Positions 1,746 through 56,229 of a stretch of DNA of 64,000 nucleotides are shown one piece after another. The stretch spans positions 11,911 to 75,910 of the forward strand of contig CAZSNF010000015.1 of the NCBI GenBank assembly GCA_964608315.1, read 5' to 3'. Origin of the DNA: an uncultured Rhodothermales bacterium (GTDB lineage Bacteria; Bacteroidota; Rhodothermia; Rhodothermales; VXPQ01). Below the pieces are notes generated by a model that worked only from the letters and a program-made list of their open reading frames with translations, was not told the DNA's origin and searched no databases. The position numbers were made by a program, and so were the translations under genes. Positions within the stretch are counted from its first letter, which is position 1. Every line of letters begins with the position of its first letter.

Positions 1746-4070
1746 ATGTACGCAACGGGCTATCCTTTACGTATTTACGTATCAAACCGGGACAAAGTTA
1801 CCAAACCGGGCGAAGCAAGAACCGCGCGGCGCATTCTCCGTATCAAAGACGCCCTCTCATCCGGCAGACTGCCTGTGCCAAATCATTTCGCAAATAGGAT
1901 TCTCCGAAGCGGGCAAGGCTATATCGACGTAGCGTTGCGCAACCAAAAACATCGCATCGCTTTCCTCGCAGCCGCACTGATATGTTTCGCCCTCGGCGCA
2001 GCATACAACGTATTCGAATGGTTGTCCGGCGCGCCCTGGCACCCCGCGGCGGATTTCGCATACCAGATGGTGATCGTCACGGGATTCGCGCTGTTCTGGT
2101 TTCTGCTGGCGTATTTCCTGAAACAGCGACCCGTCAGCCCGCTCAAAACGTTCTGGACCACCTTGCTGCTGGGCGTGCTTGCCGCAGGCGTCATCCGATT
2201 GCTGGTAGACATTACCGCCACCGCCCCGGAGGACGTACCCGTCACGCCCGCCCTGCTGGGTTTCGAATACGGCACCGGCGTTCCGCTCACGTTCGCCACG
2301 GTCGTCAAGATGCACGTGATCAGTTTCCTGCGAGCGCTCGTCGCCTTTTACCTGTTGTTGCGCTTTCAGGACCTGGTGCTGTTCAAACGCACGAAGCAAA
2401 GCCAGCGAAACTGGTATCTCATGCTCGTGTTCATGGGCGTCTTTTCGCTCCTCGCCATTCTGAAAGACCCCGCCGAAGACCCCAACGTGGTGCAATTCGC
2501 GGCCATCATTCCGGTCATCATTCTTATGATCCTGAATTCGTTCCGCGTGTCATGGATCGTTTTCCTGTCGTTCCGGGCCAAGGCGGCGGGCGTGGGCCTC
2601 TCCGTCCTGCTCATGCTGATGCTGGCGGGGACCCTCCCCGCAGAAGGGATTCTGCCGGCCCATTTCATGTACATACGCCACGCCAGCTACCCCCTCGATC
2701 AATTCACGCTGGTCGCATTGTCTTTTGGCCTGTTGTATTGCGTAACGTCGTTCCTTTTTCTCGTTTTTCACCTTCCGACCACCGGAGATTTCCAGCGCAA
2801 GGCCGGAGAAGTCGCCGCCATGTATTCGCTGACGAATCTCGTCAACAAGGCGTTCGACCCCGACAAACTGCATCTCGCCATTACGAAAACTCCCGTGGAG
2901 ACGGGCGCAGCGCAAATGGCCTGGCTGGCGATCAAAGACGAACGAAGCGGTTCGCTGCGCCCGCAGGTCGCGGCGGCGTGGAACACCACCGCCGAAGAAA
3001 TCGAAGCCATGACGGACGTGGCGGCGCTGTACGAAGAACTCGCGAGCCGGCGCGAGCCGGTCATTCTGAACGAAGCGCCCGCAGACCACCGCATCCGGAG
3101 CAATCCGGGCAACCCGATCGGCGCCATGCTGATGACGCCCCTCGTCACGCGAGACACGTTGCTGGGCGGGCTTTTCGTGGCCAAGGACATCGCACAGGGG
3201 TTCGAGGAGGACGATATCGAAGCGATCGGCGTCTACGCTGCCCAGGCCGCCATCGCGCTGGACAATGCGCGCCTTTTCGAAGAGAAACTCGAACGCGAAC
3301 GCCTGTCCCGCGAGCTGGACATCGCCCGCGACATGCAAAAAAGGCTCTTGCCGCGCGACCTGCCGAAAATGCAGGGTCTGGCCATCGCCGCTTCCAGCAT
3401 CCCCGCTCACGAAGTGGGTGGAGATTATTACGATTTCCTGAAACTGGACGAGGACCGGCTGGCGTTCATCGTAGCGGACGTATCCGGCAAGGGCATCTCC
3501 GCGGCGTTCTACATGGCGGAACTACAGGGCGTCTTCCGCGCCACCGCGCGCATAGCGCCCGGGCCGGCGGATTTTCTCGCACAGGCCAACGTGGCGATTT
3601 CTTCTGCGCTTGAGCGCGGCATGTTCGTATCCGCAATTTACGGGGTAATCGACAGCCGCGCGGGAACGGTGACGCTGGCCCGCGCCGGACATTGCCCGGC
3701 CATTCATATTTCCAGAGAGGGCGTGGAGCGCGACGTGCGCCCGCCCGGCGTCGCCCTCGGAATGGACCGAAGCAAGCGTTTCCGAAAACACCTCGAAGAA
3801 GAGCGTATTTCGCTTCGGCCCGGCGACACGGTTGCAGTCTATACGGACGGAATCGTCGAAAGCAGGGACAGCGAGGGGACCCTGTACGGACACAAGCGCC
3901 TGGTCGAAGCCCTCAAAACGCATCGACTACAAGACGTATCGGCCATCTACGAAGCGCTGCTCGCGAACCTTCACGAGTACATTGGTCGTACTGAATACGA
4001 CGACGACATGACCCTTGTGGTCATGCAATGGAACGGCATGCAAAACCATACGAAACAAGCGGCGACATGA
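1746..4070 (+). CDS. Membrane-bound PP2C/SpoIIE-family serine phosphatase with a multi-TM N-terminal region and a GAF-like middle domain (RsbU-like).
   Basis: 774-aa ORF with many hydrophobic helices in the first ~350 aa. C-terminal PP2C motifs: HEVGGDYYDF, VADVSGKGISAAFYMA, YTDGIVES, DDDMTLVV. Its stop overlaps the next start (ATGA at 4067-4070). Start codon is uncertain. Confidence 0.85.
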   Translation: MYATGYPLRIYVSNRDKVTKPGEARTARRILRIKDALSSGRLPVPNHFANRILRSGQGYIDVALRNQKHRIAFLAAALICFALGAAYNVFEWLSGAPWHPAADFAYQMVIVTGFALFWFLLAYFLKQRPVSPLKTFWTTLLLGVLAAGVIRLLVDITATAPEDVPVTPALLGFEYGTGVPLTFATVVKMHVISFLRALVAFYLLLRFQDLVLFKRTKQSQRNWYLMLVFMGVFSLLAILKDPAEDPNVVQFAAIIPVIILMILNSFRVSWIVFLSFRAKAAGVGLSVLLMLMLAGTLPAEGILPAHFMYIRHASYPLDQFTLVALSFGLLYCVTSFLFLVFHLPTTGDFQRKAGEVAAMYSLTNLVNKAFDPDKLHLAITKTPVETGAAQMAWLAIKDERSGSLRPQVAAAWNTTAEEIEAMTDVAALYEELASRREPVILNEAPADHRIRSNPGNPIGAMLMTPLVTRDTLLGGLFVAKDIAQGFEEDDIEAIGVYAAQAAIALDNARLFEEKLERERLSRELDIARDMQKRLLPRDLPKMQGLAIAASSIPAHEVGGDYYDFLKLDEDRLAFIVADVSGKGISAAFYMAELQGVFRATARIAPGPADFLAQANVAISSALERGMFVSAIYGVIDSRAGTVTLARAGHCPAIHISREGVERDVRPPGVALGMDRSKRFRKHLEEERISLRPGDTVAVYTDGIVESRDSEGTLYGHKRLVEALKTHRLQDVSAIYEALLANLHEYIGRTEYDDDMTLVVMQWNGMQNHTKQAAT

Positions 4071-5700: not shown

Positions 5701-5731
5701 TCCGGCGTTCCAATCCGGCCCGAAATGCGCC

Positions 5732-5841
5732 CTGACTGTGTCATTTCTCAATTATGCGGGGCCGCCGCCTGCATTGCTTCGCATTCCTCGCCAGGGCGCC
5801 TCTCGCAGCCTCTGAACTTTGCAGATTTAATCAGAGTATCC
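5732..5841 (+). repeat. Partial copy of the MITE-like repeat family (stem-loop A module plus right terminal repeat).
   Basis: Aligns by eye to 14300-14408 of the full copy: ...gtcatt(t/c)ctca(a)ttatgcgggg...cctcgcagcctctgaactttgcaga(t/a)ttaatcagag... It ends in TTAATCAGAGTATCC. Confidence 0.75.
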
Positions 5842-5956: not shown

Positions 5957-6030
5957 GGGTCCTTAGCTCAGTTGGTTAGAGCGCTACGTTGACATCGTAG
6001 AGGTCGATGGTTCGAATCCGTCAGGACCCA
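5957..6030 (+). tRNA. tRNA-Val (anticodon GAC).
   Basis: Manual cloverleaf: acceptor GGGTCCT/AGGACCC, D-arm GCTC..GAGC, anticodon stem CTACG/CGTAG with loop TTGACAT, T-arm GATGG TTCGAAT CCGTC, discriminator A. 74 nt, no encoded CCA. Confidence 0.9.
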
Positions 6031-6077
6031 CACCCCCGGTCAGTTTGTCGCCTTGCGGCGCATCGCCCGAATTTATG

Positions 6078-6244
6078 GATACCCTGGCCAAAACCCCTTC
6101 GCTCAGCGCGTCGCGTTCGCGGACGCAGGACGCCATGCTTGCATCGTTAAAATCAGTGAAAAACACTTCGCATTCGCGCCGTCGCGTCCGTGACGCGCCC
6201 TTCGGGAGGCTGCGAGGGGCTTTGTGGACTCAATCAGAGTAGCC
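6078..6244 (+). repeat. Repeat-family copy lacking module A (left end + stem-loop B module + right end).
   Basis: GGATACCCTGG...cgcgttcgcg...gacgcgcccttcgggaggctgcgagg...CAATCAGAGTAGCC. It ends 2 nt before the thrS ATG. Confidence 0.7.
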
Positions 6245-8199: not shown

Positions 8200-8393
8200 A
8201 GAAACGCTGATTTAGGGTCTGTGGATGCGCCTTTGAGCGAAACATCGGGCCCCAAAATCTCTGTGCCAACCCATCGTCTGCCTACCCTTATGTTTAGGAC
8301 ACTCTGATTAAAATTACTTGCAGAGATATTCTTTCTGATCCCGTCTGCACAACATCGTTACAATTCAGGGGAAACCAAACGATCCCGGCTCGC

Positions 8394-14150: not shown

Positions 14151-14412
14151 TTAAGGAACCTCTGATTAATTCTACTTCGATCAGCGCTTCGCGTTCGCGC
14201 GTACAGTGACATTATGACGGCATCGTTGAAATCAGCGGCATACGCTACGGATTCGGGCGCAGCGGACGCGAAGCGCCCTTCGGGAGGCCGCGAGGAACGC
14301 GCTGGCCGCGTCATTCCTCATTATGCGGGGCCTGCCGCATTGCTTCGTCATTCCTTGCCAGCGCGTCCCTCGCAGCCTCTGAACTTTGCAGAATTAATCA
14401 GAGGTCCCTTAA
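14151..14412 (+). mobile_element. Full-length MITE-like element (254 bp) plus flanking TTAA direct repeats.
   Basis: Terminal inverted repeats GGAACCTCTGATTAATTCT (14155-14173) and AGAATTAATCAGAGGTCCC (14390-14408) differ at one position. TTAA lies at 14151-14154 and 14409-14412. It is the near-identical reverse complement of 59172-59425. Confidence 0.8.
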
Positions 14413-16824: not shown

Positions 16825-16925
16825 GGTTCGAATCGGGAACGCAATTTCGTAATATAAGGACGTCAGGGGATAATCTGATCAAAACAACTACGCTCAGCAC
16901 GTCGCTATCGCCCGTAAAGGACGCC

Positions 16926-17213
16926 ATGATTGTATCGTTGACATCAGCAGACAACCCGCCGAATCGCTCGCGCGCGAAGAAACTGTGGCGCTGGGCGATC
17001 ATGATCGCCGCCGCGCTCTTCTTTTTCGCCGTCCTGCGCGAAGCCGCAGACCCCTACGGCGACCAGCCGTATATAGAGATCACGCACGGAGACCATGTCC
17101 ACTATGTGCCGCGCGATCGGGACCCGAAGGTGCCCCTCAGCAAATTCCCCCGGGTTCCGCCGGGCCCGAATGAAATCATCACGCCGGAAGGCCGCGTCGT
17201 GCCGAAGGAATAA
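16926..17213 (+). CDS. Small membrane-anchored protein with an HGDHVHY motif (putative metal binding).
   Basis: 95 aa from ATG 16926. TM helix LWRWAIMIAAALFFFAVL followed by ITHGDHVHYVPRD. The track start at 16725 overlaps the upstream gene. Confidence 0.5.
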   Translation: MIVSLTSADNPPNRSRAKKLWRWAIMIAAALFFFAVLREAADPYGDQPYIEITHGDHVHYVPRDRDPKVPLSKFPRVPPGPNEIITPEGRVVPKE

Positions 17214-17214
17214 A

Positions 17215-17292
17215 GGGTACTCTGATTAGAGCCTGTTAACGCTGCGAATTCGGGGCATGGCGGACGTGAAGCGCCCTTCGGAAGGCCGCGCC
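17215..17292 (+). repeat. Partial repeat-family copy (left end + GATTAGAGCCTGTTAAC linker + 3' half of module B).
   Basis: GGGTACTCTGATTAGAGCCTGTTAACGCTGCGAATTCGGGGCATGGCGGACGTGAAGCGCCCTTCGGAAGGCCGCG aligns to 22384-22436. It starts right after stop codon TAA 17211-17213. Confidence 0.7.
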
Positions 17293-20003: not shown

Positions 20004-20066
20004 GGCTCTCCTCTGATTTTTTCAGTGCGTCTTGTAAAAAAACGCCGTCGGAACAGCGTTTGGATC

Positions 20067-20129
20067 AAGGATACGTTGGCCCGCAAAGCTCAGAGGCTGA
20101 GCAAAGTAGTTTTGACCCGGGTATCCTTA
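20067..20129. repeat. Degenerate mini copy of the repeat family.
   Basis: AAGGATACgttggcccGCAAAGcTCAGAGGCTGagc...cggGTATCCTTA has inverted ends and the GCAAAGTTCAGAGGCTG core. Confidence 0.5.
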
Positions 20130-20659: not shown

Positions 20660-20761
20660 TATATTAAAAAAACAAGGCGAAAGCAACGTTCCGCGAAGCA
20701 ATTCACCTTATCCTCATTTCGATTCCGCGTACAAGGGCCGCGCCGAGCGAGGCGGTTTTGA

Positions 20762-21328
20762 TCAGGGCCTGTAATCGGCCTCGACTTTTCCGCTGGCGAC
20801 CTCCCGGAGTTTGCGGCGCAACAGACGGCGACGAAACGCGCTGATGCGGTCCACGAAAAAGACGCCCTCCAGATGATCCACTTCATGCTGAATCACGCGC
20901 GCCGCCAAACCGCCCGCCTCGATCTCCTGCGCCTGAAAATGACGGTCCAGGTACGTCATCCGGATGCGTTCGGGACGGCGAACCGTCTCGACGATGTCCG
21001 GAATGGATAAACACCCCTCCTCGAATTCGCTTTCCTCGTCGCTCTCCTCGATAATTTCAGGGTTGACGAACGCCATGGCTTCCCGAACCTGTTCCTGTTC
21101 CCGCGCATGTTCCCGGCCCCCGGCGGGCCGTATTTCCGCCGCTAGCTCGGCCACGAAGATGCGCTCCGTACGACCCACCTGCGGAGCGGCCAGGCCAATG
21201 CCCCCGGCGCGCCGCATGGTCTCGATCATATCGTCGATCAGTTGGCGAATGCTTGCACTGTCGCCCGGCACTTCGTCGGCGCCGCGGCGAAGGACGGAAT
21301 CGCCATACAAGCGAATGGGAAGAATCAT
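20762..21328 (-). CDS. def: Peptide deformylase.
   Basis: Starts MILPIRLYGDSVLR (ATG verified at 21328). Motifs GIGLAAPQVG, EGCLSIP, HEVDHLEG. The track start at 21595 overlaps ruvX. Confidence 0.9.
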   Translation of the reverse strand: MILPIRLYGDSVLRRGADEVPGDSASIRQLIDDMIETMRRAGGIGLAAPQVGRTERIFVAELAAEIRPAGGREHAREQEQVREAMAFVNPEIIEESDEESEFEEGCLSIPDIVETVRRPERIRMTYLDRHFQAQEIEAGGLAARVIQHEVDHLEGVFFVDRISAFRRRLLRRKLREVASGKVEADYRP

Positions 21329-21787: not shown

Positions 21788-21871
21788 GGATACTCTGATT
21801 AAATCTGCAAAGTTCAGAGGCTGCGAGGGGCGCTCTGGCAAGGAATGACGAAGCAGCGTGGCAGGCCCCGG
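21788..21871 (-). repeat. Partial repeat-family copy (terminal repeat + first half of stem-loop A).
   Basis: GGATACTCTGATTAAATCTGCAAAGTTCAGAGGCTGCGAGGGGCGCTCTGGCAAGGAATGACGAAGCA... aligns to 59172-59250. Confidence 0.75.
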
Positions 21872-21873
21872 GT

Positions 21874-22281
21874 TTACGACGAATTGGCGGCGTCCGCATC
21901 GCGCTTGTCGCCTGCGGATGCGCCGCCGTCCGCCGGCGACAAGGGAACCCGCAATACTTCCCGCAACCGCTTCCCCGGACGAAAGTGCGTCTTGCGGCGA
22001 CTGGGAATGAAGACCGTCTCGTTTGTCCTCGGATTGCGGGCCTTCGGCTTGGGGCGGGTCTTCTTGACCTCGAACACGCCGAATTCGCGCAGCTCAATGC
22101 GAACCTCCGGATCCGCATCCATCATAATGTCGCGGAGAGCGCCAAGCACCGCGCGAACCCAGGGATCCGCCTTGTACACGGGCTCGTCCATGGTTTCGGC
22201 CACGCGACGGGCCACGTCTTTTCGGGTTTGCGTACGGGATGGGGAGGGCATGATCGTCGTCTTTAACGCACTGTTATCCAT
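21874..22281 (-). CDS. HU/IHF-family DNA-binding protein.
   Basis: ELREFGVFEVKKTRPKPKARNPRTNETVFIPSRRKTHFRPGKRLRE is the beta-arm signature. Alternative start at 22251. Confidence 0.8.
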   Translation of the reverse strand: MDNSALKTTIMPSPSRTQTRKDVARRVAETMDEPVYKADPWVRAVLGALRDIMMDADPEVRIELREFGVFEVKKTRPKPKARNPRTNETVFIPSRRKTHFRPGKRLREVLRVPLSPADGGASAGDKRDADAANSS

Positions 22282-22295
22282 AAGGATACAATATA

Positions 22296-22463
22296 GGATA
22301 CTCTGATTAAACCTGTTTCGATCAGCGCCGCTTCGCGTTCGCGCGAACAGGAGATTGTGACGGCGTCGTCGAAATCAGCGGTAAACGCTGCGGATTCGGA
22401 GCATGGCGGACGCGAAGCGCCCTTCGGGAGGCTGCGAGAGACGCACTGGCATGTCATTCCTCG
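22296..22463 (+). repeat. Partial repeat-family copy (left end + stem-loop B + start of A). It overlaps the relA/spoT stop.
   Basis: GGATACTCTGATTAAACC...cgcttcgcgttcgcgcg...GCGGACGCGAAGCGCCCTTCGGGAGGCTGCGAGAGACGCACTGGCATGTCATTCCTC. Confidence 0.75.
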
Positions 22464-24697
22464 AACCGATACACGCCGTGAATTCCATCTATGCGCTTGA
22501 GCCGCTCGATAACGCGCCGAAGATGCGACAAATCCGTCACCGAGCATACGATCGCGCCTTCGAATACGCCATCTTCGGAATCCACGGTGATAGAGCGAAT
22601 ATTCGTTTTCAGGTTTTTGGAAATCACGGTCGTGATGTCGCTGACGATACCCACGCGATCCTCTCCCATCACCCGCAAACCGGATAAAAAATGTACGTCT
22701 TTCTGCCTGCTCCATTCCACTGAAACGATGCGGTCCGGGTGGTTCACAAGCAGGCCGGGCGCGTTCCGGCAATTCACGCGGTGAATCTTTATGCCTTCGC
22801 TGCGGCTTACGTATCCGAACACATCGTCTCCGGGAATCGGATTACAGCAAGGCGCATACCGCGTAACGATATCCGTATGCAATTCCCCATCGATTTCAAG
22901 CGCCGGACGAGCGGTTATCTGGGCCGAATCCCGAAAATCCTCGTAGCGCAGCCGAAGTCCTTCCTGTTCGGCGGATTCGCCTTCCTCTTCCTTGCGCCCG
23001 CGCGACTCGCCCCGAACGAATTTCACGAAATCCTTCGCGTCGAAAAGTCCCGTCCCGATCTCGTAAAACATTTGCTGGGCGTTCGGAAACTTGAGTCGGT
23101 TGGCCACCCGGCGCAGTTTCTGCTCATTGACCTGCAAGCCTGCCCTGTCGAGTTTTTTCCTGAGCGTTTCCCGACCCAGGTCGATGCTCCGGCGACGCTT
23201 CTCGTTGATAGAATGCCGTATCCTGCTGCGCGCCTTGTGCGTAACGACGAACTTCATCCAGTCGGGGTTCGGCGCTTGCTTCTTCGACGTAATGATCTCC
23301 ACCTGATCGCCGCTCTGCAGTTTGTACGAAAGCGGCGCCATCCTGCCATTCACTTTCGCCCCGATGCAGTGCATGCCTATTTCCGTATGCACCTGAAAAG
23401 CGAAATCGACCGGGGTTGCATGGCGGGGCAACGTCATCAAGTCCCCCTGCGGAGTGAAAATATAGATTTCCTCGTCGTATAAATTGAGCCGAAACTCCTT
23501 GACGAATTCCGTGGCGTGCTCCGGGTTGGGATTTTCAAGAATATCCCGCACCCAGTCCAGGAATTGCTCCATCCCCCGGTCCCGGTCGCTCACCGCCTCC
23601 TTGTATTTCCAGTGCGCCGCCACGCCGCGCTCGGCGATGGCGTGCATTTCTTCCGTTCGAATCTGCACTTCCACCCGCCGCCCCGCCGGACCGAGCACCG
23701 TCGTGTGCAAACTCTGGTATCCGTTGGATTTGGGCACCGAAATAAAATCCCGAAAGCGTTCCGGCAACGGTTTGTACAAGTCCGTAATGATCGAATACAC
23801 CCGCCAGCAATCTTCTTTGCCCTTCTTGCCCGCGCTTTTCAGCACAATGCGAATGGCGAGCAAGTCGTATATCTCTTCGATCGGCTTATCCGTCCGCTTC
23901 ATCTTCCGCCAGATCGAATAGATGTTCTTCGACCGGCCCGCCATCTCGAAATCGAATCCATCGCCCTCGAGGCGCTCCCGCAACGGTTGGATAAAACGGC
24001 GCACATAGCCGTCCCGCTCGACTTTGGTCGCCTGCAAACTTCGCACGACGCCGCGGTATTCTTCCGGGTGGAGGATTTTCAGGGAAATATCTTCCAACTC
24101 CGCCTTGATCGCGTGCAGCCCGAAACGGTGGGCGAGCGGCGCAAAGAGGTCCAGGGTCTCGCTCGCAATCTTGAGTTGCTTCTGCTTGGGAAGCGACCCG
24201 ATGGTCCGCAAATTGTGCAGCCGGTCCGCAAACTTGATAAGAATGACGCGGATGTCCGTCGCCATGGACAGCATAAGCTTGCGGACATTCTCGGCCTGAC
24301 CCAGTTCGCGGCTCCAGAAAACTCCCCGTATCTTGGTCAACCCATCGACGATGTTCGAAACCGCGTCGCCGAATTCTTCCCGTATGAGGTTCAGGGAAAA
24401 TTCCGTGTCCTCCACCGTGTCGTGCAACAGCGCCGAAACCACGCTGACATCGTCGAACCCGATATCCCTGGCCACGATCGTCGCCACTTCAATGGGGTGC
24501 GTAATGAACCTTTCCCCCGAGGCGCGCCGGTCGTTTCGATGGGCCCAATAGCCCAGCATGAAGGCGCGCCGGATCATATCCTCGTCCACCGACCGCAGGG
24601 ATTGGCGACACGCAACGAGCAAGTCGTTGAGCCCGGACTCGAATTCCGGTTCGACCTGCAAGTCGGTATTGCTCAGAATGGAAGAAGCGCGCAGCAT
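22454..24697 (-). CDS. spoT: Bifunctional (p)ppGpp synthetase/hydrolase (RelA/SpoT homologue).
   Basis: 747 aa with an HD hydrolase domain (HPIEVA...LHDTVEDT), synthetase domain (YQSLHTTV), TGS domain and C-terminal ACT-like domain. Confidence 0.92.
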   Translation of the reverse strand: MLRASSILSNTDLQVEPEFESGLNDLLVACRQSLRSVDEDMIRRAFMLGYWAHRNDRRASGERFITHPIEVATIVARDIGFDDVSVVSALLHDTVEDTEFSLNLIREEFGDAVSNIVDGLTKIRGVFWSRELGQAENVRKLMLSMATDIRVILIKFADRLHNLRTIGSLPKQKQLKIASETLDLFAPLAHRFGLHAIKAELEDISLKILHPEEYRGVVRSLQATKVERDGYVRRFIQPLRERLEGDGFDFEMAGRSKNIYSIWRKMKRTDKPIEEIYDLLAIRIVLKSAGKKGKEDCWRVYSIITDLYKPLPERFRDFISVPKSNGYQSLHTTVLGPAGRRVEVQIRTEEMHAIAERGVAAHWKYKEAVSDRDRGMEQFLDWVRDILENPNPEHATEFVKEFRLNLYDEEIYIFTPQGDLMTLPRHATPVDFAFQVHTEIGMHCIGAKVNGRMAPLSYKLQSGDQVEIITSKKQAPNPDWMKFVVTHKARSRIRHSINEKRRRSIDLGRETLRKKLDRAGLQVNEQKLRRVANRLKFPNAQQMFYEIGTGLFDAKDFVKFVRGESRGRKEEEGESAEQEGLRLRYEDFRDSAQITARPALEIDGELHTDIVTRYAPCCNPIPGDDVFGYVSRSEGIKIHRVNCRNAPGLLVNHPDRIVSVEWSRQKDVHFLSGLRVMGEDRVGIVSDITTVISKNLKTNIRSITVDSEDGVFEGAIVCSVTDLSHLRRVIERLKRIDGIHGVYRFEE

Positions 24698-24971: not shown

Positions 24972-27900
24972 ATGGGTTGGCATAACGGGGAACTATCGTT
25001 CTCCTTGGTGCGAAAGGTGAAGTTTGTATGGATGTGCAGCAAGGAAGGCGATCATATATTCCCATCCGAACATAGGCGCGGCGCTCCGGATCGCCGGAAG
25101 CCAGGAGGGGGGACGGCCCCCCTTACATATTCGCCGATTGACCGACCGGTGTCTTGGGCGAGAGGTGTGTCCGCTAAACTGTGTAAGCGGGGTTATTCAA
25201 TAGGGACACGCCTGTCGCGACCTTTCCTCCAGCTGACCGTGCTGCTCCTGTTCGCCAGCGCGGCGCCGGCGCGCGGCCAGGACCAGAACGTCATCACCGT
25301 CGAACCCGGACCGGACGCGGTCGAGGGAGGCGGCGTCAGTTTCAACATCAAGCGCGCCTATGCTCACGCGTTGGGCGTCTCGGGCATCAAGTACTCCTGG
25401 TCGCAGGAGGGCTACTGGGTAGTCTGGGGAGGCTCGACGACCGGCATCAGCGGAGGCCTAAGCCAGCAGACTATCACCCTGACCGGCATCCCGGGCGACA
25501 ACATCGACAAGCCGAACGGTTCGGTCACCCTGAAAGTGAATACCGGCGCAGGCTATGTTGTGGGTTCGCCCTGGACCGCCACCGTCCCCGTGGCCGACGA
25601 CGACCCGACGCCGGTAACTTTAAGTGCGGTCGCCGGCGATATCGAAGAGGGCGGATCGAAGACGCTGACCGTCTCGCTGGGACGGGCTCTCGTGGCGGGC
25701 GAGCAGCTCACCGTCGCCCTGACCTTCGGCGGACAGGCCAGTTTCGGCGCCGACTACTCGCTTTCGGCGCCGGACCCGGCGCCGGCAGGGGTCTCCTACA
25801 CGAATCTTTCGAGCGACGACCTGACAGACGATCCGCCCAGCATCGTCTTCACCGGCGGGGCCAACGCCGCGGCCGCGGCCACGCTGATCCTGGAAAGCTC
25901 GAGGGACCGCGTCATGGAATCGAGCGAGACCGTGAGCGTCGGCCTGGGCACGCTCACCGCGGGCGAGGGCCTCGGGGGCGGAGCGTCCGCCGTCGCGGGA
26001 GGCGCGAGCTTCTCGATCGACGACGCCACGAAGATCCTGGTCGGCATCGCGGCCGCGGCCGATCCGGTCACCGAGGGCACGAACGCCGCCTTCACCCTCA
26101 CCGCCGATATCGCGCCGACCGCCGACGTGACGGTCGAAGTCGCGCTCACCCTGGTCGGCGGCAGCTACCTGAAGGACGAAGCGACATCGAAGAACGTGGT
26201 GATCAAGAAGGGCGCGACGACCGCCGGTTTCGCCCTGGAAACTGTCGGAGACACCGTCGACGAAGCCCCAGGCAGCGTGACGGCCGCCATCCAGAACGAC
26301 CCCGCCTACATCGTGGGGCCGAACGACGCCGCGAGCGTGAACATCCAGGACGACGATCCGACGTCCGTGACCCTGGAGGTCACGGACGCCGAAGCCATCG
26401 AGTTGACGACGCGGCAATCGGCCGCGATCCGGGTGAGGATCGGCCGCCGGCTGCGGTTCGACGAGAAACTCTCCGTTCCCCTTCTCTTCTCCGGCAGTAC
26501 GCCGAGAGCAAACCTCACCCTGGAACTGGTTCGGTCAGCCAGCACGGTGACCGCTCCTTCCTTCAACCCCACCACTGACATCCTGACGTTCAACCCCGGT
26601 TTCGGACGCAAGACAGGGGCCGCCGTCGCCGACATTCGCGTCAGCGTCACGCACCCCGACGGCAACGCCGTGGACGACACGATCATCGCGGATATTCCGA
26701 GGTCCTCCACGGGCACGCCCAGTCTCGGGGCGGCCAAACTGCAGGGCGGCGCCCTCGGCACCCGGAGCGGCGACGGAGAGATCGATGTCCTCGACCTTGA
26801 AGCCAGGCGCACGTTCCGGATATCCGGCGGAAGCGCGGTGGACGAGGGCGGCACGGCCAGCTTCACCGTGCACGCGGACCGGAAGACGGCCCGGAGCACC
26901 ATCGTTTTCGTCGACGTGACGCAGGAGGGCGACTTCGCCGCCGCGTCCTCCCTCGGAAGGAAGCAGGTCCGGGTGTTGCAACTCGCCACCAGCGGGACCC
27001 TGAACGTCCCGACGGTCGGGGACGACAAGAACGAGGCGCATGGCAAGATCGTAGCCACGATCAGCGCCAACAATGCCTACGTAGTCGCCGCCAAACCCGA
27101 CGACAGCGCCGCCGTGACGGTCAACGACGACGACGATCCTCCCGCTACCCCGCCGGTCGCGAAATTCGCCGCGGCTTCAGCGACCGCGGCGGAGACGGCG
27201 GGATCGACGATGATCGACGTCGCGCTCTCGCCCGCGCCTACAGCGGAACTCACGCTGAAGTATACGCTGTCCGGCTCCGCCGCCCTGGGGACCGACTACG
27301 CGATCGCCGGCGCGAGCGACGGCGCCGGAACCCTGACGATCCCGAAGGACAGCACGGCTGCTTCGATCAAGGTCGCGATCACGGACGACGCGCTCGGCGA
27401 AGGAAACGAGACCGTCGTCCTGAGCCTCGCCGACGGAACGGGCTACGCTCTCGGAACGCCCGCCCGTTTCACCCTGACCATCGCCGACGACGAACCCGCG
27501 CTCGCCATTTCGGCCTCGGCGCCCGCCGTCTCCGAGGGAACGGCCGCGACCTTCGCGGTGACCGCGAACCAGGCCGTCGCGGCGGACGTCAAGGCGAGCG
27601 TGACCGTGGCCGCCGGCGGCGATTTCGTCGCGGCCGACGACCTCGGCGCGCAAACGGTCACCATTGCGAAGGGCAAGAAAACCGCCGCGCTGTCGATTCC
27701 GACCGCGGACGACGAGACGGACGAGCCGAACGGCTGGATCCGCGCGACCCTTGACGCCAACTCCGCCTACACGATCCCGAAGCCTCCGAACAACAGCGCG
27801 CAGGTCGCCGTCAACGACGACGACGATCCTCCCGTCGACACGCCGGTCGCGAAATTCGCCGCGGCTTCAGCGACCGCGGCGGAGACGGCGGGATCGACGA

Positions 27901-29486
27901 TGATCGACGTCGCGCTCTCGCCCGCGCCTACAGCGGAACTCACGCTGAAGTATACGCTGTCCGGCTCCGCCGCCCTGGGGACCGACTACGCGATCGCCGG
28001 CGCGAGCGACGGCGCCGGAACCCTGACGATCCCGAAGGACAGCACGGCTGCTTCGATCAAGGTCGCGATCACGGACGACGCGCTCGGCGAAGGAAACGAG
28101 ACCGTCGTCCTGAGCCTCGCCGACGGAACGGGCTACGCTCTCGGAACGCCCGCCCGTTTCACCCTGACCATCGCCGACGACGAACCCGCGCTCGCCATTT
28201 CGGCCTCGGCGCCCGCCGTCTCCGAGGGAACGGCCGCGACCTTCGCGGTGACCGCGAACCAGGCCGTCGCGGCGGACGTCAAGGCGAGCGTGACCGTGGC
28301 CGCCGGCGGCGATTTCGTCGCGGCCGACGACCTCGGCGCGCAAACGGTCACCATTGCGAAGGGCAAGAAAACCGCCGCGCTGTCGATTCCGACCGCGGAC
28401 GACGAGACGGACGAGCCGAACGGCTGGATCCGCGCGACCCTTGACGCCAACTCCGCCTACACGATCCCGAAGCCTCCGAACAACAGCGCGCAGTGCACCG
28501 TCAACGACAACGACAACGCGCTGCCCGTCGTCAGCATCTCCGGCGGCGCGACGGTCACCGAGGGCGGCGAGGCGTCCTTTGACCTTACCGCTTCGCCGGC
28601 CCCGACCGAAAGCCTCGCGGTCGATGTAAGCATCGATCAAAACGGCGACTTCGCCGCACAGGGGCAAACCGGGCAGAGAACGATCACCCTCGGCGTAAGC
28701 GGCACAGTCCGCTTCAACGTCGCCACGGCGGACGACAACGCCGAAGAAACAAACGGAACGATACGAGCAACCGTCCAGAACGGAACTGGTTACGTCGCGG
28801 CCGATCCGCCGGCCAACAGCGCCCTGGTCGCTGTCAACGACAACGATACCGAGACAACCACGACCGAAGTAACGCTGTCGGCGACCCCCAACCCGGTGCA
28901 AGAAGGAGAGTACGTCACTATTACCGTTTCGTTCTCGCAGCCGCTCGACAACGACATAGCCATTCCGCTCATGTTCACGCCGGAAACGGCAGAGCCTGAC
29001 GACTTCGTCATGCTCGCCTTGATCACGATCAGGGCAAACGAGACGAGCGCGCAGGGCGCCATCGCGATATTGGAAGACGACGATCCGAACGACGAAACCT
29101 TCACCGTGAGTCTGGGAACGCTTCCTGAAAATCTCGTGGCCGGAACGCCTTCGTCGACCACCCTGCTCATTACGGATAAAACAAACGTTACATCGGTCGA
29201 ACCGGTCGGAGAGGAAATCCCCGCGGCCTTCGCTTTGGAGCAAAACTATCCGAACCCATTCAATCCGTCCACAACCATCGAATTCGCGCTCGACAAGACG
29301 CAGCGCATCACGCTTTCGGCGTACGACATGCTTGGTCAAGAGGTGCGGGTACTGATGGACGGCGTACAACCGGCGGGCCGCTACCGCGTATCGTTCGACG
29401 GGAGCGGACTTGCGAGCGGTACGTATCTGTATATCCTCCGCACCGAGGAGCAAGTGGCCGTCAAAACGATGGCGCTGCTCAAGTAG
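24972..29486 (+). CDS. Giant Calx-beta repeat surface protein with a T9SS C-terminal sorting domain.
   Basis: Repeated ~110-aa modules (e.g. LKYTLSGSAALGTDYAI...ITDDALGEGNETVVLSL). The C-terminus NYPNPFNPSTTIEFAL...GTYLYILRTEEQVAVKTMALLK is Por_Secre_tail-like. The signal peptide (LQLTVLLLFASAAPARGQ) suggests the real start is GTG 25167; 24972-25166 looks non-coding. Confidence 0.85.
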   Translation: MGWHNGELSFSLVRKVKFVWMCSKEGDHIFPSEHRRGAPDRRKPGGGTAPLTYSPIDRPVSWARGVSAKLCKRGYSIGTRLSRPFLQLTVLLLFASAAPARGQDQNVITVEPGPDAVEGGGVSFNIKRAYAHALGVSGIKYSWSQEGYWVVWGGSTTGISGGLSQQTITLTGIPGDNIDKPNGSVTLKVNTGAGYVVGSPWTATVPVADDDPTPVTLSAVAGDIEEGGSKTLTVSLGRALVAGEQLTVALTFGGQASFGADYSLSAPDPAPAGVSYTNLSSDDLTDDPPSIVFTGGANAAAAATLILESSRDRVMESSETVSVGLGTLTAGEGLGGGASAVAGGASFSIDDATKILVGIAAAADPVTEGTNAAFTLTADIAPTADVTVEVALTLVGGSYLKDEATSKNVVIKKGATTAGFALETVGDTVDEAPGSVTAAIQNDPAYIVGPNDAASVNIQDDDPTSVTLEVTDAEAIELTTRQSAAIRVRIGRRLRFDEKLSVPLLFSGSTPRANLTLELVRSASTVTAPSFNPTTDILTFNPGFGRKTGAAVADIRVSVTHPDGNAVDDTIIADIPRSSTGTPSLGAAKLQGGALGTRSGDGEIDVLDLEARRTFRISGGSAVDEGGTASFTVHADRKTARSTIVFVDVTQEGDFAAASSLGRKQVRVLQLATSGTLNVPTVGDDKNEAHGKIVATISANNAYVVAAKPDDSAAVTVNDDDDPPATPPVAKFAAASATAAETAGSTMIDVALSPAPTAELTLKYTLSGSAALGTDYAIAGASDGAGTLTIPKDSTAASIKVAITDDALGEGNETVVLSLADGTGYALGTPARFTLTIADDEPALAISASAPAVSEGTAATFAVTANQAVAADVKASVTVAAGGDFVAADDLGAQTVTIAKGKKTAALSIPTADDETDEPNGWIRATLDANSAYTIPKPPNNSAQVAVNDDDDPPVDTPVAKFAAASATAAETAGSTMIDVALSPAPTAELTLKYTLSGSAALGTDYAIAGASDGAGTLTIPKDSTAASIKVAITDDALGEGNETVVLSLADGTGYALGTPARFTLTIADDEPALAISASAPAVSEGTAATFAVTANQAVAADVKASVTVAAGGDFVAADDLGAQTVTIAKGKKTAALSIPTADDETDEPNGWIRATLDANSAYTIPKPPNNSAQCTVNDNDNALPVVSISGGATVTEGGEASFDLTASPAPTESLAVDVSIDQNGDFAAQGQTGQRTITLGVSGTVRFNVATADDNAEETNGTIRATVQNGTGYVAADPPANSALVAVNDNDTETTTTEVTLSATPNPVQEGEYVTITVSFSQPLDNDIAIPLMFTPETAEPDDFVMLALITIRANETSAQGAIAILEDDDPNDETFTVSLGTLPENLVAGTPSSTTLLITDKTNVTSVEPVGEEIPAAFALEQNYPNPFNPSTTIEFALDKTQRITLSAYDMLGQEVRVLMDGVQPAGRYRVSFDGSGLASGTYLYILRTEEQVAVKTMALLK
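27121..28500 (+). repeat. Tandem duplication (2 x 690 bp) inside the Calx-beta gene.
   Basis: 27151-27803 matches 27841-28493 base for base when read side by side. Track ORFs 27443..27760 and 28133..28450 have identical translations. Confidence 0.9.
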
Positions 29487-33887: not shown

Positions 33888-33904
33888 CTGAATCAGAGTA
33901 TCCC
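33888..33904. repeat. Solo terminal-repeat motif of the repeat family, between secY and map.
   Basis: CTGAATCAGAGTATCCC. On the gene strand it reads GGGATACTCTGATTCAGCGC followed by the map ATG. Confidence 0.6.
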
Positions 33905-36623: not shown

Positions 36624-36659
36624 AGATACTCTGATTAAGTCCGCTTCATCAGAATATCC
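36624..36659. repeat. Mini-palindromic repeat-family unit between rplR and rpsE.
   Basis: AGATACTCTGATTAAGTCCGCTTCATCAGAATATCC has the two terminal repeats back to back with the GTCCGC linker seen in copy 43285-43537. It abuts the rplR stop codon. Confidence 0.65.
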
Positions 36660-37012
36660 TACAGTTGCAATCCCCCTTCGCGCGCGCCGTCCGCCAAAGC
36701 GCGGACGCGCCCGTGATAGCGATAACCGTTCCGGTCGAACACAACCTGTTCAATGCCCTGGTCGCGCGCCCGCCGGGCGATATTCGCGCCAACCGCCTTG
36801 CTGACCTCAATGGGCGTATCCCCGCCCACGCCGGACTCCTTGCTCGAAGCCGCCGCCAGCGTAACGCCCGCGCGGTCGTCGATCAGTTGCGCATAGATGT
36901 ACTTGTTCGAACGAAACACGGAAAGGCGCGGGCGCCGTGCGGTGCCAGCCACCTTCGCGCGCATGCCGCGCTTTACGCGACGTTTCCGTTCCTGTTTTTT
37001 GTGCGAGGCCAT
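36659..37012 (-). CDS. rplR: 50S ribosomal protein L18.
   Basis: Starts [21 protein letters not shown]...[19 protein letters not shown] (ATG verified at 37012). Confidence 0.92.
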
Positions 37013-37061
37013 AATTCCTGTCCGATGCGCAAACGATGCTGATCCTTGAAAAGGAGGAGTA

Positions 37062-37616
37062 TTACCGGGCGGCGGTCTTGCCGGCCTTGCGGCGAACGTA
37101 TTCGCCCACGTAGCGAATGCCTTTGCCCTTGTACGGCTCGGGGGGACGGAGCGCCCGGATCTTTGCGGCGACCTGCCCGACAATTTGCTTGTCGATCCCT
37201 TCGATCGTAATCACTGTGTTTTTGCCCCGCGCCGCCTCGACGGTCACGGAAACCGTGGTCGGCGGCACAAAATAAATCGGATGCGAAAAGCCCAGCGCCA
37301 GTTCAAGGACGCCGTTGTTCACCGCAGCCCGGTACCCGACGCCAATCACCTCCAGTTGTTTGCGATACCCTTTGGCGACCCCTTCCACGGCATTGCTGAT
37401 GAGCGAGGCGTACAACCCGTGCATCGCCGCGTGACGCTTTTGCTCCCCGGAGCGTCGGACCGAAATTACGCCCTCCTCGTGCGTAACCAGAATTTCAGGG
37501 GCAACCTGCACGGACAATTCTCCTTTGGGGCCCTTGACCGTCACGAGATTGTGCTCCGAGACGTCCACGGATACGCCGTCGCCGACTTCAACAGGTCTGT
37601 TGCCTATGCGAGACAT
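37062..37616 (-). CDS. rplF: 50S ribosomal protein L6.
   Basis: Starts [11 protein letters not shown] (ATG verified at 37616), with KGPKGELS and YKGKGIRY. Confidence 0.93.
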
Positions 37617-37684
37617 GTGTCTTCTCTGTAAGGGTTCAGGGATAGCGCGGGGTCCCTGCAACGCGCAGGGAATGGTTTCGAGAA

Positions 37685-38086
37685 TCAATAAAGATACGCA
37701 AGCACCTCGCCGCCAATGTGCGCCTTGCGGGCCTCCTTGTCGGTCATCACGCCGCGCGACGTGGACAGGATGGCGATCCCCAGTCCATTCATCACGCGCG
37801 GCAATTCACGGGCGCCCACGTACCGGCGCAAACCCGGCGTGGACACCCGCTTCATCATGCGAATGACCGGCTCGCCCTGCCCATCGTACTTGAGGCGGAC
37901 CCGAAGGAATCCCTGCTTGCCGTCGTCCACATCGAGGTAACTGCGGATGTAGCCTTTATCCAGCAATATCTGCGTGATGGCCCGCTTTTGTTTCGAGGCG
38001 GGTATATCCACGTATTTGCGACCGGCCCGCTGGCCGTTGCGAATGCGCGTCAGATAATCTGCAACCGGGTCTGTTATGCCGCTCAT
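37685..38086 (-). CDS. rpsH: 30S ribosomal protein S8.
   Basis: MSGITDPVADYLTRIRNGQRA...GGEVLAYLY. Confidence 0.95.
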   Translation of the reverse strand: MSGITDPVADYLTRIRNGQRAGRKYVDIPASKQKRAITQILLDKGYIRSYLDVDDGKQGFLRVRLKYDGQGEPVIRMMKRVSTPGLRRYVGARELPRVMNGLGIAILSTSRGVMTDKEARKAHIGGEVLAYLY

Positions 38087-38092
38087 ATTGTT

Positions 38093-38109
38093 TTAATCAG
38101 AGTATCCTT
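38093..38109. repeat. Solo terminal-repeat motif between rpsN and rpsH.
   Basis: TTAATCAGAGTATCCTT. On the gene strand it reads AAGGATACTCTGATTAAAACAAT followed by the rpsH ATG. Confidence 0.6.
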
Positions 38110-43280: not shown

Positions 43281-43541
43281 TTAAGGATACTCTGATCAAG
43301 TCCGCAAAGATCAGAGGCTGCCAGGCGCGCTCTGGCAAGGAATGACGAAGCAATGTGGCAGGTCCCGCATAATGAGAAATGACACAGCCAGAGCGCCTCT
43401 CGCAGCCTCCCGAAGGGCGCGTCACGTCCGCAACGACAGAAACCCGCGGTGTTTTCTGCTGATTTCAACGATGTAATCATGATGTCCTTACGGGCAAATG
43501 TGACGCGCTGGGCGAAGCGGTTTTGATCAGAGTATCCTTAA
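43281..43541 (-). mobile_element. Full-length but diverged MITE-like element (253 bp + TTAA duplications) inserted between rplW and rplB.
   Basis: GGATACTCTGATCAAGTCC (43285-) and GGTTTTGATCAGAGTATCC (-43537) are inverted ends. TTAA lies at 43281-43284 and 43538-43541. The internal sequence aligns along its whole length to 59172-59425. Confidence 0.8.
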
Positions 43542-50638: not shown

Positions 50639-50672
50639 GGATACCCTGATTAGGGCTTGTTAACACTATGCG
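50639..50672. repeat. Short repeat-family variant (terminal repeat + GATTAGGGCTTGTTAACAC linker) overlapping the ftsH stop.
   Basis: GGATACCCTGATTAGGGCTTGTTAACACTATGCG is nearly identical to 58526-58558. Confidence 0.65.
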
Positions 50673-53028: not shown

Positions 53029-56000
53029 CTAAGGAGTATTCAGCGGAATGACCCGGGCTGCTTGCGCCATGTCCTCCAATATGTATCGGACGCCTTGCAG
53101 CCCCGCCTCGGCAGCCTCCTCGCTCGGAAAATGGCCCAGCACGGCAAGGTAAACCGTCGCATCGTCCACCGAATCGACCACGACCGCGACTCGAAACCCC
53201 TGCTGCCTGTACGGCGCAATGAGCGTTTCCATGGGTTCGCGCTCGGCGTGGGCGTCGAACGCGATGGTGAATCCGCCCAATACAGGCTGAACGCCGCCCG
53301 GGCCGTACATGGAAAATTCGCCGGTGGGGATCTCGGACAGGGCCGGCGCAAACGCTTCTTCGGACAACACAGCGGTTTCGTCTGGCGGCGCAGGCGCTTC
53401 GCTCGGCGGGGCAAACGTTTCTTCCGCAGGAACAGGGACCTCGCTCGGCGGAGCGGAAACGTCTCTGGACGCCGCGGGCGCTTCGTCCGGCGGGGCGGCT
53501 TCGTCAAGGGAGTCGGGCGTCGCGCCAACCTGTTCGACGAAAAGGGAATCCGGAACGGTCGGCGCCGCAAGCGAATCGGCGAAGATATTCAGGGAGTCCG
53601 AAACAGCGGGCGCCGCAAGCGAATCAGCGGAGGCGTTCAGGGAATCCTGCAAGGCCTGTTCCGCATCCAGCACATCCAGGATATATCCGGCTCGCTCGGC
53701 ATACGGCGTACCGGGGTACAAGGTGCGGACGCCGGCGTACACCGAACGGAGATCGACGATATCTACGGCGGCGGAAGCAAGCAAATCGCCCGGCGGAACT
53801 TCGTCGTTCGCAGGCAACGCGACCAGCAAGTCCGGCGCAGCGTTCGCTTGCAAGGAATCCGCAGCAAGATCCGTTTGCAGGGAATCCGGCAAAGCGATTA
53901 CAGGGGATTCAGGGGATAAGGAATCCGCAGCGGCAAGCATGTCCGGCGGAGGTTGCATAATGCCGGCCTGGATCAGCACCGAATCCGGCAACGCGACGGA
54001 CAACGGCCCAAGCACGTCCAGCGAATCCTCGGCGGCCCATTCGAAATAAATGCGGCCCGCGGCGAACAGCGCCTTCGGCGCCGCCTCCATATCCCGATAA
54101 CGGGAAGCAATAAGCACCATGCGGCGAAACGCCTCTTCGTACGCCTCGTCCCGCCACTGAACCACCGCCTCTTCGTACGCCTCTTGCGCAACGGCAAGAC
54201 TGTCCAGCGTTTCCTTTGGCTCAAGGCCCAGTTCCATGCGAACCCGCGCGGCAAAATCGGAATCCGGATAATCAGACAAAACCTGCCGGTATATCCCTTG
54301 CGCACTGAGCGTATCGCCCAGCGAACGCTGCACTTCGGCCAAGGCGTAAAACGCTCGCTGGGCAACTTCTGCATCCGCATTCTCCTCGATCACCATACGA
54401 TACCAGACGGCAGCGGAATCCGCCTTGTTCATAGACAGGAAAAGCACATTCCCCAGTTCGTACCGGGCCAGCGCGCGCGCTTCTTCCATCTCCGCCTGGC
54501 TCAGCGAATCGCGCGGAACGCCGGACACGTCAATCAGGGGAAATGCAAACATATCCATAGCGCCCATTCCGCCATCCGAAGCGTCCGCCTCTTCTCCGGA
54601 ATCGCCCTCCTCGCGCGCGTTCAAGGCGATCGAAACGGCCTCCATGCGGCGCCAGCCGGGCACATGCGGACGTTCGCCCCAGCGCGACACAAAGTTTATG
54701 CGCGCCTCCTGTACGCGCACGCGGTCCCGATGATGCAGGAAGCCCGCCTCGCCAATATTGGCCGCGCTGGAGCTCCCGGCTGTTCCGACCGCCCCCGCCC
54801 GGGAAGCCGCATCCCGGAAGCCGCGCTCGGCTTGCAACTGCTCCGTGCGGCGACGCTCTTCTTCAAGTTCCCTCGCTTTCTGCTCCTGCATTGCGCGAAT
54901 GCGCTCTTCAAATTCCTCTTCGGGCAAACGCCCCAGCGCAAGCAACGAATCCATGCGAGCGACGCGGAGGCGCACCTCGGCGAAACCGCCGAACACGTCG
55001 GCCTGCTCATCCGCATCTGTCACGGCTTCGGGAGCATATTGCGCAACGCTTCCGGATCTCGAGGCGGAAAAGGCGGAAAGCGCTGTCCGGGCGGTATCGA
55101 AGTGCGCCGAAGCAAGCGGGTAATCCCGAAAAGCGTCCCGGTACAATTCGGCCAGCGCATAGTGCGTCAGTCCGCGGACGGTCTGGTTTCTGACTTCTTC
55201 CTCGTACAGGATGCGGTCGTATGCGGCGAACGCATCGCGGAACAAGCCTTGCGCCTGATAAATGCGGCCCCGCACATACGCAAGTTCGGGGCGGCGGTCG
55301 TAATGCTTGTCGTCGCGATCCATGCGACGCAATGCCTCCAGCGCCGCTACGCGATCAAGATGCATGCCCTGGACGCGCACCATGCTCAGCGACGCAGCAT
55401 AGTCCAGTTCGTACGGGGGGCGTTCCTTGCGCACCCGCTCGTAGGCCTCGACGGCGTCCTCGTACCGCTCCAGGGTTTCGTATACCTGGCCAAGCAAAAA
55501 AGCCCCTTTGGCCCGGAACTCCTTGTTGCGCGCATCGGACAAACCCGCTGCGAGTTCCTCCGCCGCCTTGTCGAAAGCACCCTGCTTAACGAACAATTCC
55601 CCAAACGCAAGGCGCAACTGCGCCCTCGACCGCCGCGAAACATTTTCCCGCTCCAGGCTGCCTGCAAGGTGTTGCTGCGCCGCTTCGTAGGAACGCACGG
55701 CCATCAGGGTCCGGGCCAGCCAGATCCGGGCCTCGTCCTCAAGGCTGGATCCGAAGGCGATGACCTCGCGGAATTTCTGTTCGGCGCCTACGTAATTTTC
55801 CTGATAAAAATAGGACTTTCCGATCAACATGAGCGCATCGTCCACCCATTTGGAGCGCGGATGGTCGATCAATATATCGGTGCTCTTGTCGATGGCCGCC
55901 CGGAAATTGACATTGCCGCCCGAGCGAGGCGGGCCTCCGAAGATGGCGAGATATTGCATCCGGTCTATGGGCTCCTCGGAGGATTCCATGGCCTGAACGC

Positions 56001-56157: not shown

Positions 56158-56229
56158 GGGCGGCAAGCGAATGGGCGGGAAAAAGAGGAGAAAAAGCCCG
56201 GAGGAACCGCGAAACATCCAGCGCGGCGG

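Follow-up and report, generated by a model that had tools for sequence, protein, structure and literature searches.

Small intergenic inverted-repeat elements such as Correia/NEMIS, ERIC and RUP, which belong to the miniature inverted-repeat transposable elements (MITEs), are often co-transcribed and form stable RNA hairpins, and each is in essence one long hairpin flanked by a duplication of TA or of another sequence. The insertion sequence (IS) IS5 of Escherichia coli, in a real copy that we read, has the left inverted repeat (IRL) GGAAGGTGCGAACAAGTCC, the right inverted repeat (IRR) GGAAGGTGCGAATAAGCGG and the target duplication CTAA. MITEs belonging to the IS5 family have been described in Porphyromonas gingivalis (BrickBuilt and MITE239/464) and in Neisseria meningitidis (ATR) (PMC4596501). 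Here we analyze a 64,000-nucleotide stretch from an uncultured Rhodothermales bacterium (GCA_964608315.1, contig CAZSNF010000015.1, positions 11,911 to 75,910 of the forward strand; referred to as the window), which holds three full copies and about 15 fragments or solo ends of a 254-bp repeat family. This family very probably consists of non-autonomous MITEs that are derived from, or parasitic on, IS5-group ISs. In the literature we found no description of the element, and nothing relevant on its end sequences or on MITEs in Rhodothermales.

The first full copy (14155-14408, plus strand, 254 bp) separates two convergent genes, zapA and one for a ubiE-type methyltransferase. Its left terminal inverted repeat is GGAACCTCTGATTAATTCT (14155-14173, plus strand) and its right one, read inward, is GGGACCTCTGATTAATTCT (14390-14408, minus strand), and the copy is enclosed by a TTAA on each side (14151-14154 and 14409-14412, both read from the sequence, the left one backed in addition by the duplication statistics given below). 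The second copy (59172-59425, minus strand; 59168-59429 with its flanks, which are TTAG and TTAG when read on the plus strand) is located about 30 bp upstream of cysS. Copies 1 and 2 are mutual reverse complements of 254 bp each with 97.2% identity and 7 mismatches, which agrees with the approximately seven mismatches counted by hand in an earlier note on this DNA; both are bounded by GGAACCTCTGATTAATTCT ... AGAATTAAYCAGAGGTYCC, with complementarity at 18 of 19 positions within each copy. They represent a young subfamily characterized by a terminal GGAACC, which must have moved recently, since its two copies are 97% identical. The third copy (43285-43537, minus strand, 253 bp; 43281-43541 with its TTAA/TTAA duplication) belongs to an older GGATAC subfamily, is about 80% identical to copy 1, and has the ends GGATACTCTGATCAA...TTGATCAGAGTATCC, unlike copies 1 and 2. 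It is inserted within the S10 ribosomal-protein operon, between rplW (L23) and rplB (L2), in sense orientation, and the stop codon of rplW falls within the duplicated TTAA. The 4-bp direct flanks that the earlier note had assigned to the three full copies were thus read at each of them, while its 19-bp inverted ends hold for copies 1 and 2 and give way, in the family consensus, to imperfect ends of about 30 bp. Its count of at least 18 related loci in 64 kb is also borne out, as a family profile search of the window returned 13 separate loci, and together with solo ends the total is roughly 18. Allowing up to 3 mismatches, we counted 24 matches to the 15-nt end motif in the window, compared with 1.25 in shuffled sequences, and pieces of the family are present in roughly a third of the intergenic regions of the window.

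Using a near-invariant 22-mer from the element core (GCGCCCTTCGGRAGGCYGCGAG) as a probe, we scanned the contigs of species-representative genomes and found at least 83 loci. All matches listed were in Rhodothermales metagenome-assembled genomes of at least eight species (OX638293, OX638295, OZ246975, OZ220746, OZ244993, JAJDWX01, JAJECT01, and JANQSQ01), a spread across the clade, and several of these loci (labelled L followed by a number below) align as orthologs with parts of the window (80-91% identity), which places the window in a related species that the collection does not include. From the listed loci we took 58 full copies of 244-263 bp, which are 75-86% identical to copy 1 of the window, and the statistics given below refer to this set. 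A profile search gave 136 hits in 84 loci, comprising 64 full, 41 partial and 31 short copies. They fall into three size classes: about 36-96 bp, with the outer stem alone; 130-190 bp, with a single internal hairpin; and about 250 bp. In short-read (Logan) assemblies of the window species every contig ends at the element, which is what a repeat with many copies would produce. The core 22-mer had no match in the viral contigs scanned, nor did the whole element in the plasmids searched.

The 4 bp on the two sides of the element are exact duplications in 19 of the 58 full copies and match at 3 of the 4 positions in 25 others (25/58), with TTAA as the consensus on both sides; permuting the right flanks among the copies gave 6.5 exact duplications on average, and 19 was not reached in any of 10000 permutations. 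Besides the most common targets TTAA, CTAA and TTAG, the duplicated tetranucleotides include TATA, ATAT, TGTA, TACA, TAAA and TTAT. Six of the exact duplications are non-palindromic (TGTA, TACA, TAAA, CTAA twice, and TTAT) and there are just two copies whose flanks agree only in inverted orientation; therefore the flanks are duplications rather than extensions of the terminal inverted repeats. The TTAR duplication proposed previously is accordingly right in its length and in the prevalence of TTAA and TTAG, and too narrow in its sequence: the target range is TTAA/TWWA-like rather than strictly TTAR, and other A/T-rich targets are used as well.

Further, we joined the two flanks of an element and searched the joined sequence against the other loci, which recovered empty orthologous sites in relatives. 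The clearest case is a copy at L007:2390-2643, whose flanks are 91% identical to an empty site in L077. The sequence is ACAATATGATG where the element is missing, and ACAATAT, then the element, then ATATGATG where it is present; hence ATAT is single in L077 and duplicated around the element in L007. Filled and empty sites differ by exactly 4 bp. Among nine comparable sites, eight are empty in the relative and one contains a short remnant, indicating that most insertions are later than speciation. The remnant, a minus-strand short form consisting of the outer stem only (20057-20126), lies in the window where L050 has a full copy, and this was the only orthologous filled/filled pair that we found among the loci.

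The site of copy 2 could be compared in three genomes (window 59168-59172, L034:6090-6110, and L068:2064-2299). In L034 it is empty and reads TTTTTTCGTTAC followed by ATATCG, with a single TTAC in place of the TTAG, element, TTAG of the window. In L068 it is occupied by a copy of an older subfamily inserted left end first (junction CTTTCCGTTAC to GGATACTCTGATCAAAGCC...), while the window has the young subfamily inserted right end first (junction CTTTTCGTTAG to GGAACCTCTGGTTAATTCTGCAAAG...). One tetranucleotide was therefore entered independently by two subfamilies in opposite orientations and is empty in a third genome, and the TTAC/TTAG site upstream of cysS is an insertion hot spot.

The usual end of the family, GGATAC...GTATCC, is found in all subfamilies of all eight genomes except the young one of the window. 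The copies closest to the young subfamily (L007, L008 and L016, all from OX638293) share its subterminal ...TGATTAATTCTACTTCGATCAG, yet start with GGATAC, while in the lineage of the window both ends have been altered, to GGAACC...GGTTCC or GGTCCC. The altered end coincides exactly with a 19-mer found in unrelated metagenome MITEs and nearly with the end of an IS on plasmid pUP202 of Methylomonas sp. UP202. This IS (NZ_CP123898.1, 52817-54020; 1204 bp), which was found by searching plasmids with the GGAACC 19-mer, has the IRL GGAACCTCTGATTAATTCC, flanks TTAA and CTAA, and the IRR GGAATCTCTGAA..., and its coding sequence is annotated as "IS5 family transposase"; the IRL matches GGAACCTCTGATTAATTCT at 18 of 19 positions, an identity that applies to the GGAACC subfamily only. 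With one frameshift repaired, the transposase shows 50% identity to E. coli InsH in an alignment of 325 aa (E = 3e-113), and at the DNA level its gene has thousands of relatives that are annotated as IS5-family transposase genes. For the GGAACC subfamily, the attribution to the IS5 group made in the earlier note is thus upheld by an actual IS with such ends and an InsH-like transposase. The GGATAC to GGAACC change at both ends suggests that the MITE switched to a newly arrived transposase, and judging from the end sequences the young subfamily may have adapted to, or been selected by, a GGAACC-type IS5-group transposase.

Metagenome contigs scanned with GGAACCTCTGATTAATTCT gave at least 120 loci, and among those listed the profile detected the 254-bp body in none. 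These loci are other MITEs, mostly of 150-200 bp and some of 50-60 bp, with the ends GGAACCTCTGATTAATTCTGG...CATGAATTRATCAGAGGTTCC. Among the matches listed, 90 of 121 have a YTAR left flank, 51 of the 83 with both ends have an exact 4-bp duplication (TTAA 21, CTAG 11, CTAA 10, and TTAG 5), and where an autonomous partner was looked for only other MITEs were seen.

Several candidates for an autonomous element in the Rhodothermales loci were considered and rejected. A weak tblastn hit in L030 (E = 0.85) overlies a MITE and an open reading frame (ORF) that is not a transposase. Pairs of ends 0.9-3.8 kb apart enclose ordinary genes (glycosyltransferase-like and purK-like ORFs, and others), and the 1484-bp interval 36624-38107 of the window contains rplR, rplF and rpsH. 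A search for repeats longer than 450 bp that are multi-copy within genomes yielded nothing beyond orthologous segments and a single 2.6-kb duplication in L067 of OX638293, in which no transposase-like ORF was seen. The two segments of this duplication (L067:1-2632 and L067:5372-8000) are 95% identical and flank a full MITE copy at 3203-3458. Separately, a plasmid of the sponge isolate Microbulbifer sp. MI-G (NZ_CP098024.1; L213:2501-3350) has a GGAACCTCTGATTTATTC end flanked by TTAA and followed by small ORFs, one of which (246 bp) is annotated as "transposase"; this is probably the remnant of an IS that had such ends.

Based on the ends and the duplications, we propose an ordinary MITE mechanism. 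A DDE transposase supplied in trans would bind the 19-30-bp inverted ends and cut an A/T-rich tetranucleotide with a 4-bp stagger, which would leave a 4-bp duplication on each side. An IS5-group transposase encoded elsewhere in these genomes may carry out the mobilization, and its own element would be expected to be 1.1-1.5 kb long, with ends GGATACTCTGAT or GGAACCTCTGAT and 4-bp duplications. The family has what defines a MITE, namely inverted ends, a duplication of fixed length, a small noncoding body, and multiple copies with empty sites, and it has the marks of the IS5 group in that the dominant duplication is a 4-bp YTAR and, in the GGAACC subfamily only, the ends are those of an IS with an IS5-group transposase.

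Several observations weigh against this explanation. The GGATAC-type end, searched against plasmids, matched no known IS, and it resembles IS5 ends only in part (GGATACTCTGATyAAGTCC of the MITE and GGAAGGTGCGAAyAAGTCC of IS5 are identical at only 12-13 of 19 positions). The targets TATA, ATAT, TGTA, TACA, TAAA and TTAT exceed the classical YTAR range of IS5. Tblastn with E. coli InsH and the pUP202 transposase gave no hit in the window, where the earlier note had likewise seen no transposase, nor in the loci searched, which amount to about 650 kb from Rhodothermales and 760 kb from metagenomes; a transposase gene bounded by the same type of 19-bp end is present in Methylomonas pUP202 (18/19), and none was found in the window or the Rhodothermales loci reached, so that mobilization in trans is a matter of inference. 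Finally, a plain MITE does not predict the compensated stems, the invariant loops and the orientation bias that are described below.

The choice of target may account for where the copies lie. All 49 full copies that could be scored are intergenic, and about one third are within 0-11 bp of a stop codon. YTAR includes TAA or TAG on either strand, and TTAA includes TAA on both. As the genome has a G+C content of 60.5% and tetranucleotides of the YTAR type are rare inside genes at this content, stop codons are natural targets. A/T-rich targets are concentrated at stops and between genes, leading to the intergenic position of all copies, and the 4-bp duplication regenerates the stop codon after insertion. 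With respect to co-directional flanking genes, the orientation of the copies is moderately biased: the ratio is 23:8 among full copies and 21:9 when all hits of 120 bp or more are counted (p about 0.01-0.04; p = 0.043 for the latter).

Each strand of the element can fold as a three-way junction, in which the terminal repeats form the outer stem and the interior forms two hairpins. In copy 1 these are hairpin A (14184-14276, plus strand; element positions 30-122) and hairpin B (14283-14382, plus strand; element positions 129-228), the latter with a loop region at 14310-14363 that contains the invariant GTCATTCCTCATT...GCTTCGTCATTCCTTGCCAGCG, and near-invariant GCGCCCTTCGGGAGGCYGCGAG with a CC-TTCG-GG mini-hairpin occupies the junction (14273-14294, plus strand). 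The fold is far more stable than those of shuffled sequences (z = -6.4 for DNA; for RNA, -7.0 on one strand and -9.8 on the other). RNAalifold predicted 82 pairs from the alignment of the 58 copies, with 91.7% of cells paired (94.9% in the outer helix). Both sides changed in 34 pairs, as opposed to 17.3 ± 2.4 after shuffling (0/500) and 12-15 in slid controls. Compensation was measured on disjoint pairs of copies, with the expectation that the two sides change independently: 5 compensated double changes were observed against about 0.7 expected for pairs above 90% identity, 46 against about 7 at 84-90%, and 70 against about 14 at 78-84%, a 5-7-fold excess. In the 84-90% band, the divergence per site is 0.10 in stems and 0.15 at unpaired sites. 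Matching terminal changes are also visible in single copies (GGACAC/GTGTCC, GGAGAC/GTCTCC, GGGTAC/GTACCC, GGATGC/GCATCC, and ACGCTG/CAGCGT). The mean column identity is 77%, and 45 columns do not vary among the 58 copies, which represent at least 8 species. These invariant columns are grouped mainly in two places, the junction GCGCCCTTCGG and the hairpin B loop (GTCATTCCTCATT...GCTTCGTCATTCCTTGCC), in which GTCATTCCT is present twice. Indels and stem compensation within an element of 244-263 bp are incompatible with a conserved ORF.

These features would fit an element that is mobile and at the same time selected as a structured RNA or single-stranded DNA module, which would add to the MITE explanation, and for which roles in mRNA processing or stabilization, in translational uncoupling within operons, or in protein binding at the repeated GTCATTCCT may be proposed. 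The stability of the fold, the excess of double changes, the slower stems and the invariant columns speak for such a module, as do the orientation bias and the sense copy inside the S10 operon. However, neither strand is favored by wobble pairs: hairpin A has 212 G:U and 69 A:C (top strand favored), and the outer stem and hairpin B together have 41 G:U and 125 A:C (bottom strand favored), and an assignment of the strand by these counts was rejected because the helices contradict each other. An RNA gene family, which the earlier note had raised as an alternative, receives no support from Rfam 15, where a tRNA was the sole hit in the window and the elements had no match or matches at chance level only (E up to 10), and a scan for promoter-like and terminator-like sites found none. 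Further, the insertions are mostly species-specific (eight of the nine sites are empty), so that the copies are young rather than conserved in place. Template switching in quasipalindromes is established in bacteria, and if it acts on the arms of this element, as we suppose, compensation in inverted repeats could arise by hairpin template switching without selection. Taken together, the structure does not clearly point to an RNA gene, and we consider a module of this kind rather unlikely. That the fold is under selection in a mobile co-transcribed module, acting at the RNA level or binding a host protein, seems doubtful to us as well. Two sources of the compensation remain, selection for a compact fold (in operon co-transcription or as an aid to transposition) and hairpin-templated correction of the arms; both are compatible with the MITE mechanism, and we read the fold as a constraint on the element rather than as a sign of another mobility mechanism.

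A MITE of another superfamily, either IS630/Tc1-mariner with a TA duplication or a TTAA-specific piggyBac/IS1380-like group, is very improbable. TTAA is indeed the most common flank and palindromic, and for those copies a TA duplication within TTAA is formally possible; however, the non-palindromic 4-base repeats (TGTA, TACA, TAAA, CTAA twice, and TTAT) exceed a 2-bp TA duplication, empty and filled sites differ by 4 bp, the targets go beyond TTAA, and the GG...CC ends match those of an IS5-group IS and not the CCC...GGG of piggyBac. Least probable of all is a REP/BIME-type repeat spread by a RAYT (TnpA-REP) or another non-transpositional repeat, which would share the high intergenic density, the mosaic of lengths (36-96, 130-190, and 250 bp) and the strong palindromy, but not the terminal inverted repeats with duplications, the clean empty sites and the IS5-group ends, and whose GTAG-headed unit of 20-40 bp is absent from this 254-bp element.

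Besides the full copies, the window contains shortened forms, many of them next to genes. The tRNA-Val (GAC) gene (5957-6031) has partial elements on both sides, namely a plus-strand partial copy upstream comprising hairpin B and the right end (5721-5841; profile positions 137-254) and downstream a plus-strand 168-bp form with both ends and hairpin A, without hairpin B (6077-6244). A 5' fragment (16868-16965, plus strand; profile 1-99) contains the start of an ORF of 95 codons (16926-17213) that has no Pfam match. It is followed at 17215-17290 (plus strand) by a second type of end, GGGTACTCTGATTAGAGCCTGTTAAC, fused to profile positions 83-138, and the whole region 16868-17290 has the appearance of an element that either was interrupted by a small gene or carries one. 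This second end type (GGRTAYYCTGATTAGRGCYTGTTAAC) occurs three times in the window (17215-17240, 50639-50672, and 58526-58567), once as the solo end GGATACCCTGATTAGGGCTTGTTAACAC (50639-50672, plus strand) and once in a 42-bp mini-element that combines a type-2 end with a GGAACC end and is followed by TTAA (58526-58567).

The minus-strand gene at 21874-22281 encodes an HU-like protein (Pfam Bac_DNA_binding, residues 19-110 of 135), and its last approximately 25 codons together with the stop codon come from a minus-strand partial copy at 21788-21965 (profile 79-254). Another partial copy (22296-22462, plus strand; profile 1-165) adjoins the 3' end of the gene 22454-24697, and a fragment with profile positions 6-63 is located at 20710-20767 (minus strand). 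The operon region in which copy 3 is inserted contains three smaller pieces as well. A 36-bp mini-palindrome of two ends lies between rplR and rpsE (36624-36659). Solo ends on the minus strand are found 6 nt upstream of the start codon of rpsH (GGATACTCTGATTAA, 38093-38107) and 4 nt upstream of that of map, which encodes methionine aminopeptidase (GGATACTCTGATTCA, 33889-33903); both are within the ribosomal-protein/secY operon. A weak end-like match at 8297-8377 (plus strand; GGACACTCTGATTAA..., profile E = 0.27) is of uncertain membership. Repeats of other kinds are also present in the window. An ORF of 1504 codons (24972-29486) contains tandem repeats of about 690 bp at 27100-28514 that are 96-99% identical, weaker related 46-nt units are found at 16541 and 28806, and a long minus-strand ORF (53029-56217) contains three tandem 48-bp units (53543-53686) that are 60-79% identical to the first.

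The element family contributes in a major way to the structure of these Rhodothermales genomes: it breaks short-read assemblies at every copy and reshapes the ends of genes, as in the C-terminus and stop codon of the HU-like gene and the start of the small ORF. Its mobility mechanism is ordinary; what is noteworthy is the density, the branched fold, the copy in a ribosomal operon, the reuse of a hot spot and the apparent switch of ends. The family provides clean natural examples of how IS5-type targeting of YTAR/TTAA makes use of stop codons where the genome is rich in G+C, of one hot-spot tetranucleotide used repeatedly and independently, and of a 19-bp end common to unrelated MITEs and an IS of another phylum. 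Its branched and compensated fold is, in addition, a tractable case for weighing selection against hairpin-templated repair in bacterial MITEs.

Compared with known systems, the element resembles IS5 of E. coli in the GGA start, the layout of the ends and the YTAR-type 4-bp duplication (CTAA in the copy read), and differs from it in lacking a transposase gene, in its length (254 versus 1195 bp), in its TWWA-like targets and in an unrelated interior. The pUP202 IS shares with copies 1 and 2 an IRL identical at 18 of 19 positions and the TTAA/CTAA flanks; however, it resides in a gammaproteobacterial host, is autonomous (with a frameshift in the transposase gene of the copy read), has a more diverged IRR (GGAATCTCTGAAAAAC), and shows no similarity to the MITE beyond the end. 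The metagenome MITEs (L092-L211; marine sediment and other sources, 50-230 bp) have the identical 19-bp end and 4-bp YTAR duplications, whereas their interiors are entirely unlike and their contigs are of lower or varied G+C content (44-59%). The MITEs of Porphyromonas and Neisseria, the nearest analogues that we found in print, are likewise non-autonomous, multi-copy and intergenic, with ends matching IS5-family ISs of the same or other hosts, but these ends are of the GAGACCTTTGCA type (other IS5 subgroups), the duplications are variable, and there are 10-20 copies per genome (PMC4596501). Relative to these, the Rhodothermales elements are much more densely packed and share a conserved three-way fold. 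The Rhodothermales element is also distinct from Correia/NEMIS, ERIC and RUP in being branched, with two independent internal hairpins and invariant loops.

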